NCBI RefSeq assembly: GCF_003334335.1
Contig: NZ_QOWQ01000062.1
Direction: 5' to 3' (one strand)
DNA from: Escherichia coli
GTDB taxonomy: Bacteria; Pseudomonadota; Gammaproteobacteria; Enterobacterales; Enterobacteriaceae
DNA length: 12,071 nucleotides
The notes under the pieces were generated by a model that made no database searches, was not told the origin of the DNA, and worked only from the letters and a program-made list of their open reading frames with translations. Made by a program: the position numbers and the translations under genes. Positions 1,591 to 10,111 of the stretch are shown in pieces. The first letter of the stretch is position 1; each line of letters opens with the position of its first letter.

Positions 1591-2418
1591 TTAAACTTGG
1601 GGAAGTATTTTTTTTGCAAAATCAATAGTTTCTTTGTGGTTGGATGCAGGTATATGATTTATTTTCTTAGCATCCATAGTTCTCTTTATGATGTCAATAA
1701 CTTTGCTTTGGCCTGAGTTTGGTGATTCAGGAGTTTCAATTGTGAATAAAATGTCATCAAGTGAAAGCAGGTTTTCTTCTGCTGCTCGAGTTATTCTCAT
1801 CACCCAAGTATCACTATGCTCCATCATTTTTCCTGGTTCAGCTTGAGTGAATGCCAGAGGTTTGATGGCACATTGGATCCTGTCATGCTTCTTGGCGACC
1901 AATGGCATTGAGAACTTTGCGAAATACCCATCAATGGTTGCTTGTTTGAAGACGTTCTTCAATCCATCTATTCTATCTATACTTCGTTTTAGCTCTCTGG
2001 CTAGAACATCTTCACGGCGCTCTTTTGTGTAGTCAGAGTGGTTTACATATTTATTGTAAATGCGGGCCAGCTCTTCTTTTGGGTTTTCGCTGAGAATCAC
2101 TCTCGTAGAACTGAACTGAAAAATTGATTCTTTTTTGTTTGTAAAATATCTGAAGAATTGTGCAAGTTGTTGATGTCCAACAATCTGGGTCGCATGCATT
2201 TTTGCGAACTGTAGTTCTCTTTGTATTGAGTCTTTTGCTACAGGGAAAATACAATCATCATGGAAAAAATTCTTTACACGAGAGTCATTTCGCTTTGTGA
2301 GCTGGAAATCAAAGTAATTTTCTTTTGGCGCGCACAGAAGTACGCCTATGTTTGCGAACTCTTCAGTCTCCGCATAAGGCGCATAGCGAACGATGCTATA
2401 TAGGCATGGAGTTGTCAT
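1591..2418 (-). CDS. DUF3037-like protein of unknown function, second gene of the rex-position cassette
   Basis: ORF track 1591..2433 begins at a TTG. The first ATG (2416-2418) overlaps the upstream gene's TGA (ATGA overlap) and is preceded by GGAG. The N-terminal motif CLYSIVRYAPYAETEEFANIGVLL resembles the DUF3037 signature as I remember it. Visibly AT-rich compared with flanking phage core genes. Confidence 0.5.
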   Translation of the reverse strand: MTTPCLYSIVRYAPYAETEEFANIGVLLCAPKENYFDFQLTKRNDSRVKNFFHDDCIFPVAKDSIQRELQFAKMHATQIVGHQQLAQFFRYFTNKKESIFQFSSTRVILSENPKEELARIYNKYVNHSDYTKERREDVLARELKRSIDRIDGLKNVFKQATIDGYFAKFSMPLVAKKHDRIQCAIKPLAFTQAEPGKMMEHSDTWVMRITRAAEENLLSLDDILFTIETPESPNSGQSKVIDIIKRTMDAKKINHIPASNHKETIDFAKKILPQV

Positions 2419-3164
2419 TCTATTGCGCTCCAAAATTCATCACAATCACCTTTGTCTAGCGTAGTGCAGACAAAAGGTAAAAACTCCTCATCTACTATCC
2501 ACTCTTCTGGAATTTCGTCAAGGATAGCAGGAAGCTTGTGTAAACTGTTAACGACCCTCTGGCGGTACTCTACGCGATCCACTAAATCATATTGCCATTT
2601 GCGGTTACCAGGGCCGTACACGTGCACAGAAAAATCTTCAGGTCCAGCATTCTGATCAAATGAGAGATTATGGTCAATCAGATAATACTTATCGTTACTG
2701 ATGTCATAAAGGATGTTAACGTTTCCACCTTTGTCAGTAAGCGTTCTGTCTGCATTTAATATCCATTTATCAAAAACATAGATTAATTTTTGCTGTTCGA
2801 CTGGGATGATCGTTTCGTTTCTTGACTGCGTAAACGTTAACGCTATTGCACCGTCAATGAACAATGAAGCAAAGGCATATCCTGTACAAATTTGTTGCTG
2901 CAGATCAGGTGAGTACTCTATAAGTTCCTCTGGCACAAATACGATTTTAAAGTCAGGTAAAGGAAGGCCGATATCATTAGCCAAACACGCCGAAATGAAC
3001 TCAGCTAAGAGATTTTTCGGGGGCATTGATGGTTTTGACTTCAAAACATACAACTGCCCATCATCACATTTGCAAAGAAATGGCTGAGTGGAACCTTCAT
3101 TGATGCGACGTATTACTTCAACGACATTAGGTATTGCACTATTGCTGCTCGCTACGCACTCCAT
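2415..3164 (-). CDS. HipA-like kinase-fold protein (putative Ser/Thr kinase), first gene of the rex-position cassette
   Basis: ORF track 2415..3167 begins at a GTG; the adjacent ATG at 3162-3164 has an AAGGGT Shine-Dalgarno. The motif FDKWILNADRTLTDKGGNVNIL resembles the HipA-family catalytic loop (h-h-N-x-D-x-H/R ... N), and LIDHNLSF could be the DFG-equivalent metal-binding motif. The family call is from memory, not a search. Confidence 0.45.
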   Translation of the reverse strand: MECVASSNSAIPNVVEVIRRINEGSTQPFLCKCDDGQLYVLKSKPSMPPKNLLAEFISACLANDIGLPLPDFKIVFVPEELIEYSPDLQQQICTGYAFASLFIDGAIALTFTQSRNETIIPVEQQKLIYVFDKWILNADRTLTDKGGNVNILYDISNDKYYLIDHNLSFDQNAGPEDFSVHVYGPGNRKWQYDLVDRVEYRQRVVNSLHKLPAILDEIPEEWIVDEEFLPFVCTTLDKGDCDEFWSAIE

Positions 3165-3286
3165 CACTAACCCTTATGTGATTCAAGTCTTCCATCTCAT
3201 TACTCCGCATCTCAAAGAGCGGTTTAACACTGCGTGTTTAAAGAAAAACAACAGGCCTATTGCTGTAACTGTTTTTTAGCCTCACT

Positions 3287-4380: not shown

Positions 4381-4920
4381 ATGCAACCACTTACATACCA
4401 ACAGACTAGCGGATTTAGCCCGACTGCGGTGATAAATCGTTCTCAAACAAAACAGGTGCCAGGCCACGAAAAAATCCGTGATGCCGTCCGCGCTTGGTCG
4501 GCTGAAGATAATCAGGATGTCGTTGCCACACTCATTGTGAATGAGTATCGGGAGCAGGGCGGCGGCACCATCGATTTCCCTGATGATGTCAGCCGTGCAC
4601 GCCAGAAGCTGTTCCGCTTCCTCGATAACAAATTCGATTCTGAAAAATACCGAAATAACGTGCGTGAACTGACCCCGGCAATTCTGGCGGTACTACCGCT
4701 GGAATATCGCGGTTACCTGGTTGAGCAGGATAGCTTCATGGCTAGGTTGGCTGAAATGGAAAAGGAACTCAGTGAGGCAAAACAGGCTGTCATTCTCAAC
4801 GCACCACGCCACCAGAAACTGAAGGAAATTAGTGAAGGTATTGTGTCGATGTTTCGTGTGGACCCAGATCTGGCTGGTCCATTGATGGCGATGGTTACTA
4901 CCATGCTGGGGGCGATATGA
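4381..4920 (+). CDS. CII-like regulatory protein (YdaT/CII functional-equivalent family), inferred mainly from position
   Basis: 179-aa ORF directly after cro with AAGGAG Shine-Dalgarno. Its 3' end overlaps the next ORF. Position and pairing with a YdaS-like cro suggest the YdaT-type CII equivalent; the sequence itself was not matched to a remembered reference. Confidence 0.45.
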   Translation: MQPLTYQQTSGFSPTAVINRSQTKQVPGHEKIRDAVRAWSAEDNQDVVATLIVNEYREQGGGTIDFPDDVSRARQKLFRFLDNKFDSEKYRNNVRELTPAILAVLPLEYRGYLVEQDSFMARLAEMEKELSEAKQAVILNAPRHQKLKEISEGIVSMFRVDPDLAGPLMAMVTTMLGAI

Positions 4921-6924: not shown

Positions 6925-7003
6925 GCATAACTTATGGATTATATGGAAAACTGGTAATTATGCTCTTTTCTTATGAAAATAAAGAGAAGTTTTCGCTGGC
7001 GTT

Positions 7004-7402
7004 TTATTTGTTCTGTTTTTTCTTGCGGGTTATTCTGATTTGTTTTGATTTGATTTTTTCTGACAAAAGTAGGGAAAAAATATGTCGCAAGTACTTTCTG
7101 TCTTTACCTCCTAAATTACATTCTCTATCAAATGTTGCCATAGTTATGACCCCAGTTTTATATAGTGTTTCAGCAATTTTTCTGTAGTTTTTTTCTCGCA
7201 AAATTGAAGAGTTTTTCTTTGCTGTATTTTCAAGGCTATCTCCTTGTGGTTTAAGACTATTTGGGCCAAAAAACGTTGTGGATACTGCTGCACTTGTTGT
7301 CCGTTTTTTTTGGCCCATTTGGATAGTACTTGGGAGAGGCATGATTTTAATACGCATATAAATAACTCCTCTATCAATTGGATTTTGGGAAAATGTTAAC
7401 AT
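7004..7402 (-). CDS. Hypothetical lysine-rich protein, translationally coupled to the upstream RHH gene; alternative internal start at 7357
   Basis: 132-codon ORF in a strongly AT-rich segment, which is unlikely by chance. Its ATG (7400-7402) overlaps the TAA of the upstream RHH gene (TAATG). Basic C-terminus IKSKQIRITRKKKQNK. No family recognised. Confidence 0.55.
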   Translation of the reverse strand: MLTFSQNPIDRGVIYMRIKIMPLPSTIQMGQKKRTTSAAVSTTFFGPNSLKPQGDSLENTAKKNSSILREKNYRKIAETLYKTGVITMATFDRECNLGGKDRKYLRHIFSLLLSEKIKSKQIRITRKKKQNK

Positions 7403-7719
7403 TAATCATGATTAAGGAGTAATTTTAAATCTTCCAATAAAATTTGTTTAAACTCTTGTGTTCTATGATCGATATACAACGCAAGTTTGCTTGCATTATC
7501 TTCCAGGTCACGTATCTCTCTGTCACCTCGAATAAACCCAACTAAATTTAAACGTTTAGATAGTTCAGAACTTCCTTCTATGGCATCTTGGAGTATTTGA
7601 ATGATTTCTGAATTCATTGAGCGCCCGTTTCGTTTGGCTCGTTCAGCTATAGCTTCACGCATCCCATCGGGGAAACGGAGGTTAAACTTATCGTAGTCTT
7701 TTACTTGTTTGTCAGCCAT
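7402..7719 (-). CDS. Mnt-like ribbon-helix-helix (Arc/MetJ fold) repressor with C-terminal extension
   Basis: From the ATG at 7717-7719: MADKQVKDYDKFNLRFPDGMREAIAERAKRNGRSMNSEIIQILQDAIEG resembles the P22 Arc/Mnt N-terminal domain (FNxRxP...NGRSMNSE). The track's longer start at 7749 lacks a Shine-Dalgarno. Confidence 0.7.
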   Translation of the reverse strand: MADKQVKDYDKFNLRFPDGMREAIAERAKRNGRSMNSEIIQILQDAIEGSSELSKRLNLVGFIRGDREIRDLEDNASKLALYIDHRTQEFKQILLEDLKLLLNHD

Positions 7720-7740
7720 TGGAACCCCCAAAAAAATGAA

Positions 7741-7810
7741 TGGTGCCATATTGCCACATCAATTCAATGGTGGCATTATGGCCTCATGGTGTCATTGTGG
7801 CCTCATGAGG
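7741..7810. promoter_or_regulatory. Divergent promoter/operator region with three ~19-bp tandem repeats between the two RHH genes
   Basis: TGGTGCCATATTGCCACA (7741-7758), TGGTGGCATTATGGCCTCA (7768-7786) and TGGTGTCATTGTGGCCTCA (7787-7805), plus palindrome CCTCATGAGG (7801-7810). These are likely RHH operator sites. Confidence 0.5.
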
Positions 7811-7818
7811 TTATGTCA

Positions 7819-7977
7819 ATGGAAAAGAAAGAGGTAAAAATTACCCTTCGCTATCCGCAAAAAGTGAAGGATGAATTCAAGCGAATTGCTCAGGAGGAAG
7901 GGATGTCTGAGAACGCAGCTATTGTTCAGGCGCTTGTATGGGCATTGAAATTTAGAGCACGGATACATGCTCGCTAG
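7819..7977 (+). CDS. Arc-like ribbon-helix-helix small repressor
   Basis: From the ATG at 7819 (GAGG 8 nt upstream): MEKKEVKITLRYPQKVKDEFKRIAQEEGMSENAAIVQALVWALK has the beta-strand then two helices typical of Arc/CopG. 52 aa, against 53 for P22 Arc. Directly upstream of the antirepressor. Confidence 0.6.
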   Translation: MEKKEVKITLRYPQKVKDEFKRIAQEEGMSENAAIVQALVWALKFRARIHAR

Positions 7978-8047
7978 AAACAGCGAAGCCCCACTGGCGG
8001 CAACCTTAGGGGCTTCTATCGAAAATAACCGCGAAGGAAATATCGAC

Positions 8048-8716
8048 ATGAGTATTGTAGCAACATCAGATCTGAACTTCCAAGGTGAAGCACTAGTGCC
8101 AGTGGCAAATATTGCCGGAATATGGCTAACTTCATCCAACCTAGCAAGAGCACTGAAGTATTCGAATAGTCGCGCAGTCACGATGATTTACAACAAATAT
8201 GCTGACGAATTTTCCAGTAGTATGACTAGAGTGCTTGAAGTCAGTACCTCAGAGAATGATGTCGAGGTACTTGATCTGAGTACCTCGAAAAGTACTCGAA
8301 ACTTGAAGAAGAAAGTACGTGTTTTCTCTCTCCGCGGAGCCCATTTGATCGCCATGTTCGCCCGCACTCCTGTAGCCAAAGAGTTCCGCCGTTGGGTTCT
8401 GGATATTCTCGATCGAGAAGTTCAACAATCCCCAATCATAAAACAATTCACTGATAACGAACTTTGCACACTTGCTTGGTTATGGCGAGCAGGGGATGTG
8501 ATGTTAACCGCCTGCCAGAATGTTACTCCACTTCTTCAGGTTGCGGAGCACCGCGAAGCTGGTCGCTTTACTTCTATCGGGCAAGAATATCCCCAGATAC
8601 TACATAAGGCGCGCGAAATCCTTGCCAGAGAAACGGCACATGTAAAACTCCAGCCTTGGCAGGATAATAAGTGGAGCAGGGTGTTGCCATATTTCCGTCA
8701 GAATCTGTTGCAATAA
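8048..8716 (+). CDS. ant: Phage antirepressor (Ant; AntA/Bro-N-like N-terminal domain)
   Basis: From the internal ATG at 8048 (GAAGGAAA Shine-Dalgarno): MSIVATSDLNFQGEALVPVANIAGIWLTSSNLARALKY...KKVRVFSLRGAHLIAMFARTPVAKEFRRWVLDIL has Bro-N/AntA-like motifs. It follows the Arc-like gene as in P22 immI. Confidence 0.65.
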   Translation: MSIVATSDLNFQGEALVPVANIAGIWLTSSNLARALKYSNSRAVTMIYNKYADEFSSSMTRVLEVSTSENDVEVLDLSTSKSTRNLKKKVRVFSLRGAHLIAMFARTPVAKEFRRWVLDILDREVQQSPIIKQFTDNELCTLAWLWRAGDVMLTACQNVTPLLQVAEHREAGRFTSIGQEYPQILHKAREILARETAHVKLQPWQDNKWSRVLPYFRQNLLQ

Positions 8717-8735
8717 AGTCACTAGTTAGAAATAC

Positions 8736-8776
8736 TGCCAGCATTCTACGATAACGGAAGTGCTGGCATTTTTTGG
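8736..8776 (+). terminator. Rho-independent terminator downstream of ant
   Basis: Stem TGCCAGCA (8736-8743) / TGCTGGCA (8761-8768), followed by TTTTTT (8769-8775). Confidence 0.6.
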
Positions 8777-8954
8777 GGTAATGTGCGAGTCCATTTCATA
8801 AAATACGGGTGCTGTAAACTGGACGAAATAATCTAAAAGATACCATTACCAGTAGCATTTAAATCGCTATGTGCCGATACGGATAAAATTATATTGATTG
8901 TTCACATACCTTATTGGATATTACTGAGGGGTATTTATATAAGGTGTAACGATA

Positions 8955-9461
8955 ATGTGGAACTTTGACAGTGCCGACTTAAGTGCAATAGCAGCAGGCA
9001 TTTCTGCGTTTGGCACATTAGCCGCAGCGGGGTCGGCGCTTGCAAGTTGGTACACGTCAAAACAAGCGCTGCAGCTACAAAATAGAGTTTACCTTTATGA
9101 GTCTTTAAAGGCTTGCGCTGAGAGAGCCAATACATCAGCTAAAGATAAGCGCGGATCTGAATGGAGCGTTAATGATGCAGCGGATATCATCAGGTGCCTG
9201 GTACGGGCGATGGAGATCATCAAGCAGGATAGCCAGCAGAAAGAAGGTAATCAGGCATTAATGTTGAAACAGTACTTTGTTAATCTGCTAATAATGGAAC
9301 TGTACGAGGAAGTTCATAACGGTGATGCGGCTGTTTCTGTTTTTAAAAGTACGGAACCTACACAAGTACTTGATAACTTATGGAACAAATGGCAGGAGGC
9401 TATAGCTTTTTTTGATATTTGGAATTACCCAGTTGTGACTGAGGAAGACTTGGCAGACTAA
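8955..9461 (+). CDS. Hypothetical protein with a predicted N-terminal transmembrane helix (moron-like)
   Basis: 168-aa ORF with AAGGTG Shine-Dalgarno. The N-terminus LSAIAAGISAFGTLAAAGSALASWY is hydrophobic; the remainder is hydrophilic. Preceded by about 180 bp of AT-rich non-coding DNA after a terminator. No family recognised. Confidence 0.6.
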   Translation: MWNFDSADLSAIAAGISAFGTLAAAGSALASWYTSKQALQLQNRVYLYESLKACAERANTSAKDKRGSEWSVNDAADIIRCLVRAMEIIKQDSQQKEGNQALMLKQYFVNLLIMELYEEVHNGDAAVSVFKSTEPTQVLDNLWNKWQEAIAFFDIWNYPVVTEEDLAD

Positions 9462-9655
9462 TTTTCAGCACATTTGATTTCCCATAATCAACCAGCCATA
9501 ATCATGCCATTGGAGCTTGAACAACTCCGGTGACTTCTGCGCTAAACGGGGACGTTTATGCGCACATACAATCTAAACTCTCTTCTCCCTTCACAGATGC
9601 AGAAATGCATCTGCGATTCTCTGCATCCAACGTTTGACCTCTGCGGAGGTGAAGC

Positions 9656-10111
9656 GTGAACCTCCCACAAGACGGCATCAAATTACATCGCGGCAACTTC
9701 ACCGCTATCGGCCAGCAGATCCAGCCTTATCTGGAGGACGGAAAATGCTTTCGCATGGTGCTTAAACCGTGGCGTGAGAAACGCAGTCTTTCCCAGAATG
9801 CACTCAGCCACATGTGGTACAGCGAAATCAGTGAATACCTCATCAGCAGGGGGAAATCGTTCGCTACCGCAGCATGGGTAAAAGATGCTCTCAAACACAC
9901 ATACCTCGGTTATGAAACCAAGGACCTGGTTGATGTCGTAACCGGCGAAATCACTACTATCCAATCGTTACGCCATACCTCCGATCTTGATACCGGAGAG
10001 ATGTATGTCTTCCTGTGTAAGGTTGAAGCCTGGGCGATGAATATTGGCTGCCACCTGACTATTCCGCAGAGCTGCGAGTTCCAGCTGCTGCGCGACAAGC
10101 AGGAGGCGTAA
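9656..10111 (+). CDS. ybcN: NinB/YbcN-family protein (DLP12 YbcN-like, recombination or DNA-binding)
   Basis: GTG start at 9656 with a strong GGAGG Shine-Dalgarno. The protein [58 protein letters not shown]... is what I recall as DLP12 YbcN, and it carries a NinB-like RSLSQN motif. Confidence 0.7.

Follow-up and report, generated by a model that had tools for sequence, protein, structure and literature searches.

A conserved prophage gene upstream of ninB encodes a predicted membrane-anchored protein of the PHROG 1779 family, possibly a phage-exclusion factor

What does the 168-residue protein encoded in the last accessory position before ninB do for a lambdoid prophage or for its host, and is its gene expressed as a unit of its own? 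These questions are raised by the 12,071-nt stretch of Escherichia coli DNA analyzed here, which as a whole is called the window. The window derives from a lambdoid temperate phage and covers its immunity and early-right region, with genes for a cI-like repressor, cro, a YdaT-like cII, O, P, ren, ninB, ninE, ybcO, rusA and Q, and the isolated Escherichia phage PhiR5_1 is essentially identical to it. The distance between ren and ninB is 73 bp in lambda; in the window, 2.7 kb lie between the end of ren (6924) and the start of ninB (9656), a block that is absent from lambda. The features of this block are collected in Table 1. No convincing ORF was found in the AT-rich stretch that follows ren (a 132-codon ORF on the minus strand was without a PHROG match), and in the annotation of PhiR5_1 the equivalent stretch carries only two tiny hypothetical genes. 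Behind it come a P22 immI-like module, which ends with ant and its terminator, and then the gene under study. In another part of the window, two co-oriented genes on the minus strand (1591-3167, products of 250 and 280 aa) adjoin the cI repressor gene in a rexAB-like position. They match components A and B of the PADLOC candidate defence system PDC-M66 (E = 6e-15 and 3.9e-16, respectively), and the first of them is annotated as HipA in PhiR5_1.

Table 1. Features of the region between ren and ninB (positions are those of the window).
Feature	Position	Strand	Remarks
AT-rich stretch	6925-7401		33% GC; separates ren from the Mnt-like gene
P22 immI-like module	7402-8775		in the nin region here, in the late region in P22
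Arc/Mnt-like repressor gene	7402-7749	-	part of the immI-like module
Palindrome-rich divergent control region	7720-7818		part of the immI-like module
Small arc-like ORF			part of the immI-like module, besides the repressor gene and ant
ant	7967-8716		part of the immI-like module; 46.7% GC
Intrinsic terminator of ant	8736-8775	+	stem ~8736-8768, T6 at 8769-8774
Spacer	8777-8954		178 bp, 34.3% GC
Distal spacer	8777-8893	+	AT-rich; no similarity to relatives beyond the E. coli lineage
Sigma-70-like promoter candidate	8894-8922	+	-35 TTGATT 8894-8899, 17-bp spacer, -10 GATATT 8917-8922
Imperfect inverted repeat bracketing the -10	8906-8911, 8929-8934		ATACCT and GGGTAT
Shine-Dalgarno sequence AAGGTG	8941-8946	+	8 nt 5′ of the ATG; direct reading of the sequence
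Gene of the 168-aa protein	8955-9461	+	ATG start; PHROG 1779 member
Predicted N-out/C-in transmembrane helix	8979-9047	+	codons 9-31
Acidic C-terminal tail	9438-9458	+	codons 162-168, T-E-E-D-L-A-D
ninB leader	9462-9655	+	conserved, structured; starts directly after the ORF stop, also in distant relatives
ylcH-like 33-codon ORF	9558-9659	+	overlaps the ninB start

The ORF is a genuine, conserved gene of lambda-like prophages in E. coli and related bacteria. It was complete in 37 of the 40 close loci compared, cut by the locus end in one and disrupted in two, and the earlier note on this DNA had envisaged that it might prove not conserved or disrupted in close relatives, which is not what was found. 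The product of the PhiR5_1 copy is 100% identical. In comparisons with relatives at 47-76% protein identity, synonymous sites were saturated (pS 0.66-0.96), pN was 0.15-0.36, and dN/dS, where it could be estimated, was about 0.08-0.27, which indicates purifying selection. The gene is present at 95% identity or more in 180 of 5,426 complete E. coli genomes (~3%), including the O104:H4 outbreak lineage and ETEC B7A, and the same left junction was found in 178 genomes carrying it. A tblastn search of a phage collection gave matches in PhiR5_1 and PhiR26_1 only. Furthermore, the ORF is intact in DLP12-like defective prophages (e.g., in strain 1409 and in HUSEC2011 (O104:H4)), in which its neighbors are truncated, frameshifted or carry internal stops. 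Since it has remained intact in otherwise decaying prophages, the gene probably does something for the cell or for the phage.

Two statements on the surroundings of the gene, that a terminator precedes it and that about 180 bp of AT-rich DNA follow this terminator, were confirmed. The hairpin has a stem of 10-11 bp with one bulge, its arms (inverted repeat I1) are 86% complementary over 14 nt, its energy is -15.9 kcal/mol, and it is followed by a run of six T residues. It lies 20 nt 3′ of the ant stop codon, and because it is placed like the annotated ant terminator of P22 it is assigned to ant. A simple terminator scanner, with a loop limit of 8 nt, missed it because its loop exceeds this limit. 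In the window lineage this terminator insulates the ORF from transcription of ant, and it is outside the mobile cassette. The AT-rich character, which had been claimed for the gene as well, applies to the spacer and does not extend to the ORF: with 44.2% GC (GC3 43%) the ORF is only mildly AT-rich when compared with the whole window (46.1%) and with ant, the values for ninB and ren being 51.3% (GC3 63%) and 51.7%. Within the distal spacer, positions ~8845-8875 align with the 3′ ends of DUF551 genes (in loci L003, L004 and L048 the DUF551 stop codon is at the equivalent place), and this segment looks like the decayed 3′ end of such a gene, which suggests that the ant module replaced a DUF551 gene through recombination. 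A DUF551 gene is the usual upstream neighbor of the cassette in relatives, and there no terminator follows it.

Similarity among relatives starts abruptly about 62 bp 5′ of the ATG. An element of the form TTG(A/C)T(T/A)-17 bp-GATATT was present in all six relatives compared, with an invariant spacing and an invariant GATATTA core. The upstream identity to relatives was 55-78% in the proximal part vs 35-62% in the distal flank, and this at a distance at which the synonymous sites of the ORF are saturated. The candidate matches the sigma-70 consensus at 8 of 12 positions, an ordinary value that lies below the threshold of the simple scanner, which is why the latter did not report it. Since the consensus match by itself is ordinary, the argument for a promoter rests on conservation. 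The inverted repeat ATACC(C)/(G)GGTAT around the -10 was kept in four of the six relatives and broken in the other two (L004 and L042); it is a possible operator. Its interpretation as an RNA hairpin was rejected, given that no compensatory changes were seen on reading the alignment.

On the other side of the gene, no terminator-like site was detected in positions 9462-9720 with the simple scanner and by hairpin energy, and because there is no terminator downstream in the window, the ORF would be transcriptionally continuous with ninB. In five relatives (L006, L044, L048, L058 and L059) an intrinsic terminator lies 25-60 nt 3′ of the stop codon, and in two of them, L044 and L048, promoter, ORF and intrinsic terminator make up the classical moron layout. 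The window lineage has lost the 3′ terminator element, the conserved ninB leader beginning directly behind the stop codon. According to the definition of Juhala and Hendrix, as restated in PMC3594210, a moron is extra DNA between genes that adjoin each other in related phages, with a promoter and a terminator of its own, a deviating GC content and expression from the repressed prophage. The cassette (~8894-9461) is extra DNA in this sense, a separable unit that is found behind differing upstream genes; a terminator of its own was not found in the window. Hence, the description of the gene as a stand-alone moron is partly supported: the extra DNA is there, with a candidate promoter, but the upstream terminator belongs to ant and there is none downstream. 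In the window lineage the cassette would thus consist of its own candidate promoter and the ORF, placed in the final accessory slot ahead of the ninB leader. Independent expression would be specific to this lineage, because the distant members of the family are embedded in early operons.

The genomic contexts of the family bear this out. In at least 10 independent lambdoid contexts, members occupy the last accessory position before a NinB or a DUF1367 gene in the early-right operon, and those in that slot share as little as ~23% identity with the window protein. Other members were found in the early-left accessory region, between the recombination genes and int/xis. The upstream neighbors are ant, DUF551, Ead/Ea22-like genes, a DNA polymerase III theta-like gene and unknowns, and because they vary in this way the cassette is regarded as a single-gene unit. 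Several distant members (including L058, L059 and L069/L070) lie 0-13 nt behind their upstream neighbor or overlap it; being tightly packed or translationally coupled, such members are taken to be part of the early operon. With regard to the neighbors, a DNA polymerase III theta-like (HOT-like) gene lies directly 5′ of the family member in two prophage contexts (L058, 5756-6519, and L069/L070, 5730-6483), with a 4-nt overlap and a 13-nt gap, respectively, and nearby in L061; the two genes may form a two-gene cassette. A further variant is seen in locus L055 (E. coli G1/2), which carries a ~40% identical member in the same slot. Here a perfect TATAAT is followed by a GC-rich hairpin and a T5 run that ends at the ATG, with the RBS inside (4800-4856), an upstream control arrangement that differs from that of the window.

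The protein had also been said to match nothing. It does not belong to any characterized family, but over its full length it matches the profile of PHROG 1779 (E = 6.5e-99, residues 1-168 on profile positions 2-169 of 169), of which it is a member. This family is annotated as of unknown function, and all 10 distant relatives tested match the same profile. The family is small: clustering at 90% identity leaves 14 clusters out of 5.8 billion sequences, and at 50% identity it has 34 representatives in a set of 1.84 billion proteins. Its complete members are nearly all 153-182 aa long, their mean identity across the family is 25%, all named sources are Enterobacterales (Escherichia, Citrobacter, Enterobacter, Klebsiella, Hafnia, Pantoea and Dryocola), and the only name given to members is "hypothetical protein". 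No chromosomal homologues outside prophages were seen in the homologue searches or in any of the context look-ups. Pfam gave no match for the window protein, none for 31 members at E ≤ 0.1, and no precomputed hit in either homologue search; NCBIfam gave no match for the window protein, and in PADLOC-DB 2.0 no family matched at E values up to 10. The family profile found nothing below E = 4.7 among PDB sequences. Foldseek returned uncharacterized family members only from AFDB50, and from the PDB a best E value of 0.32, the fold matches being family members or generic helical repeats. Weak Foldseek matches to HepT/HEPN-like proteins were rejected, because the family has neither the R-x4-6-H motif nor a conserved His. 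The label DUF4760 (PF15956) is attached in UniProt to two family members (A0A6N6K568 and A0A3N4P9D7), and a DUF4760-labelled protein that is not clearly a family member was a weak Foldseek match (E = 0.43, TM-score 0.38). The likeness lies in size and architecture, an N-terminal helix followed by a helical domain; however, PF15956 matches neither the window protein nor any of the 31 members, and DUF4760 is itself uncharacterized. A literature search for accessions, the phage names and DUF4760 gave nothing relevant.

AlphaFold2, supplied with the 31-sequence alignment, gave a confident all-alpha model (pLDDT 84.8, pTM 0.71), in which a continuous 57-residue helix (residues 6-62) is followed by five to six shorter helices, and the N-terminal ~25 residues of the long helix protrude without partners in the bundle. 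Residues 9-35 of the window protein form a 27-residue stretch free of charge, and an uncharged run of 18-30 residues is found in 27 of the 31 members. A single N-terminal hydrophobic helix and a soluble domain, as proposed in the earlier note, are thus recovered. The hydrophobicity of this helix is marginal: the Kyte-Doolittle maximum over 19 residues is 1.59 (1.25-2.49 in the family), and the sum on the Hessa scale is +2.7 kcal/mol (about -1 to +7 kcal/mol in the family, and positive in most members). The helix carries the family motif W-x7-S-A-phi-s-s-phi-s-s-s-phi-s-s-phi-x-S, in which s denotes a small residue (Ala, Gly, Ser or Thr) and phi one of the large hydrophobic residues Ile, Val, Leu, Phe, Tyr and Trp. 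In more detail, its second part reads S17-A18-phi-s-s-phi-A-s-A-phi-A-A-phi-x-S31. Ser31 is invariant across the family, an interfacial Trp is found at position 9 in 19 of 27 sequences, charged residues are absent from positions 19-25, 27 and 28 in all 31, and small residues are strictly kept on about three quarters of the helix surface. The conservation of the helix is tighter than passive anchoring alone would demand, which points to specific helix-helix packing.

The flanks of the helix differ in charge. The N-terminal tail is short, acidic and nearly devoid of basic residues (the N flank has a mean of 0.32 K+R and 1.23 D+E), and the 15 residues after the helix have a mean of 3.52 K+R, with Lys or Arg at positions 32-33 and 36-37. 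Because these charges obey the positive-inside rule, an N-out/C-in topology is predicted, and the helix is very probably an inner-membrane anchor of this orientation that holds the soluble domain in the cytoplasm. In one 288-aa member, P0041, the family domain is preceded by additional, strongly hydrophobic helices, which by a reading of its sequence would keep the family helix N-out/C-in. A signal peptide was considered and rejected, given that the N-region is acidic rather than basic and that Leu, Phe or Gln often occupies the -1 position before Ser31. The soluble domain has an acidic median pI of 5.1, and in the family alignment it shows neither a conserved Cys or His nor conserved residues of a catalytic type; its most conserved positions are Q42, L51, A55, N59, W70, A85, I89, F108, L112 and W146. 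At the C-terminus most members end in T-D/E-E-D-L-A/S-D (family consensus T-D-E-D-L-A-D); the tail T-E-E-D-L-A-D of the window protein is invariant in the close subfamily, and D165, L166 and D168 are found in 21-22 of the 24-25 members with a tail. The tail behaves as a short linear motif, since it is conserved in most members and absent altogether in several, and it is likely to be an interaction motif with a docking or autoinhibitory role. Taken together, alignment and model support the view of a putative binding protein that is anchored in the inner membrane, faces the cytoplasm and is non-enzymatic.

The small membrane proteins of known function that are encoded in accessory slots of lambdoid phages are mostly exclusion factors (HK97 gp15, P22 SieA, SieB and RexB). 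Cumby and colleagues reportedly described HK97 gp15, in 2012, as a moron product that confers superinfection exclusion. The window protein resembles gp15 in being a small (predicted) inner-membrane protein encoded by an add-on cassette of a lambdoid prophage; it differs in that gp15, a YebO-family protein of 62 residues, is encoded in the tail operon, and in that the window cassette has no downstream terminator. No profile similarity to gp15/YebO was detected (hhalign probability 0.27%). P22 SieA and SieB are likewise membrane proteins encoded by a prophage, with 164 and 192 aa they are comparable in length, and sieA adjoins the mnt-arc-ant immI module, a comparable module being located just 5′ of the window ORF. 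SieA, however, has several strongly hydrophobic helices, whereas in the window protein a single, weakly hydrophobic helix at the N-terminus precedes a large soluble domain, and hhalign gave no profile similarity to either protein (probability 0.09% for SieA and 0.52% for SieB). The coat protein of phage Pf3 spans the membrane once in the N-out/C-in orientation, its uncharged helix being flanked by a short acidic tail on the N side and by basic residues on the C side; the window protein shares with it the charge layout and topology, without homology. In composition only, being weakly hydrophobic and rich in Ala, Gly, Ser and Thr, the helix is also reminiscent of the SAR helices of phage endolysins and pinholins, whose orientation is N-in, the opposite of the N-out predicted here.

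Accessory-slot membrane proteins of lambdoid phages usually serve phage exclusion, as exemplified by HK97 gp15 (PMC3594210). The reading that we prefer, tentatively and in the knowledge that it may well be wrong, is that the window protein is expressed from the prophage and keeps other phages out, by superinfection exclusion or abortive infection, at the cytoplasmic face of the inner membrane. Four features point to a function in the lysogen: the gene is restricted to prophages, it is mobile in the way of a cassette, its candidate promoter is conserved, and dead prophages have retained it. The protein would cross the inner membrane once, with a short acidic periplasmic N-tail and an Ala/Ser/Gly-rich transmembrane helix, and its cytoplasmic part would be an all-helical acidic domain of ~135 residues with the DEDLAD tail at its C-terminus. 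The small-residue face of the helix would allow tight helix-helix packing, either for self-assembly or for docking onto a host or phage membrane protein, and the cytoplasmic domain and the acidic tail would bind a partner. Membrane insertion, topology and expression in the lysogen, as well as any anti-phage activity, are what we infer from the analysis. Against exclusion stand the failure of sequence and profile comparisons to link the protein to a known exclusion or defence factor, the modest promoter match, the missing downstream terminator in the window and the marginal hydrophobicity of the helix; in addition, the operon-embedded distant relatives would suit a function in the lytic cycle as well as one expressed in the lysogen. 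Indeed, these relatives and the missing 3′ terminator would fit an early lytic role nearly as well as exclusion. The gene might then encode a delayed-early accessory factor, made from the pR transcript after infection or induction, that is anchored in the inner membrane and, without protecting the lysogen, favors phage development by binding or inhibiting a membrane-associated host protein, much as lambda cIII or Kil do; a protease, a transporter or the division machinery could be its target. We consider this possible but doubtful. The gene is always co-oriented with the early operon, between replication/accessory genes and ninB or between recombination genes and int; the upstream gaps of 0-13 nt in L058, L059 and L069/L070 leave no room for a promoter; the window ORF is continuous with ninB, and the conserved C-terminal peptide suggests docking onto a conserved host partner. 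Such a role is at odds, however, with the promoter-like element conserved in the subfamily of the window, with the ant terminator, which would cut read-through unless it is antiterminated, and with an ORF that is intact in defective prophages incapable of lytic growth.

The same intact ORF in decayed prophages, together with the candidate promoter and with the use of the ren-ninB junction as a cargo slot in DLP12-type prophages (emrE, ybcK and similar genes), would also agree with a lysogenic-conversion factor unrelated to defence, which alters envelope physiology (stress tolerance, transport, or susceptibility to colicins or antibiotics). This is improbable in our estimation, as the family is confined to prophage contexts, with no chromosomal homologues outside them, and shows no transporter or enzyme features in Pfam and NCBIfam. 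A different objection concerns the membrane itself: the protein could be soluble and cytoplasmic, its Ala-rich N-terminal helix being an Alacoil-type oligomerization helix. Kyte-Doolittle values of 1.25-1.7 in several members, the positive Hessa sums and the large hydrophobic residues on one face at an i, i+3, i+7, i+10 spacing speak for this, but a soluble coiled coil would be expected to have polar or charged surface positions, and here ~20 positions are entirely without charge across 31 divergent sequences. Moreover, a Trp/Asp N-boundary and a Lys/Arg C-boundary lie 22 residues apart, and one member has the extra strongly hydrophobic upstream helices; we therefore give a soluble protein very little credence. 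Returning to exclusion, a bolder proposal, which we regard as unlikely, is that PHROG 1779 constitutes a new single-gene phage-exclusion family in which the SAR-like N-out helix is itself functional. It would sense or obstruct DNA entry at the inner membrane, or sense depolarization, and then assemble or release the cytoplasmic domain, with the DEDLAD tail as an autoinhibitory or docking element.

If it is true that the protein blocks phages, it would add a compact single-gene family of membrane-level exclusion in Enterobacterales, of relevance to host range in phage therapy and to competition among lambdoid prophages. At present the gene is one among many uncharacterized prophage accessory genes, for which the analysis yields a defined cassette, a topology model and unusually clear conserved motifs.

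The DNA that forms the right boundary of the gene has features of its own. From its distribution, the ninB leader is placed outside the cassette; it is found in ~2,900 E. coli genomes, most of them without the ORF. It occupies the position of lambda tR2, and a homology to tR2 was rejected, as the ren-ninB spacer of lambda fails to align with the leader; a search of Rfam gave no match for the leader. A conserved promoter-like sequence, TTGATT-17-CATAAT, lies within it at 9474-9502. The leader RNA has a fold z-score of -4.1, and two hairpins in it keep their loops (CCUGAACAA and GGGA) and have stems that covary, with nine compensatory pairs among six sequences.
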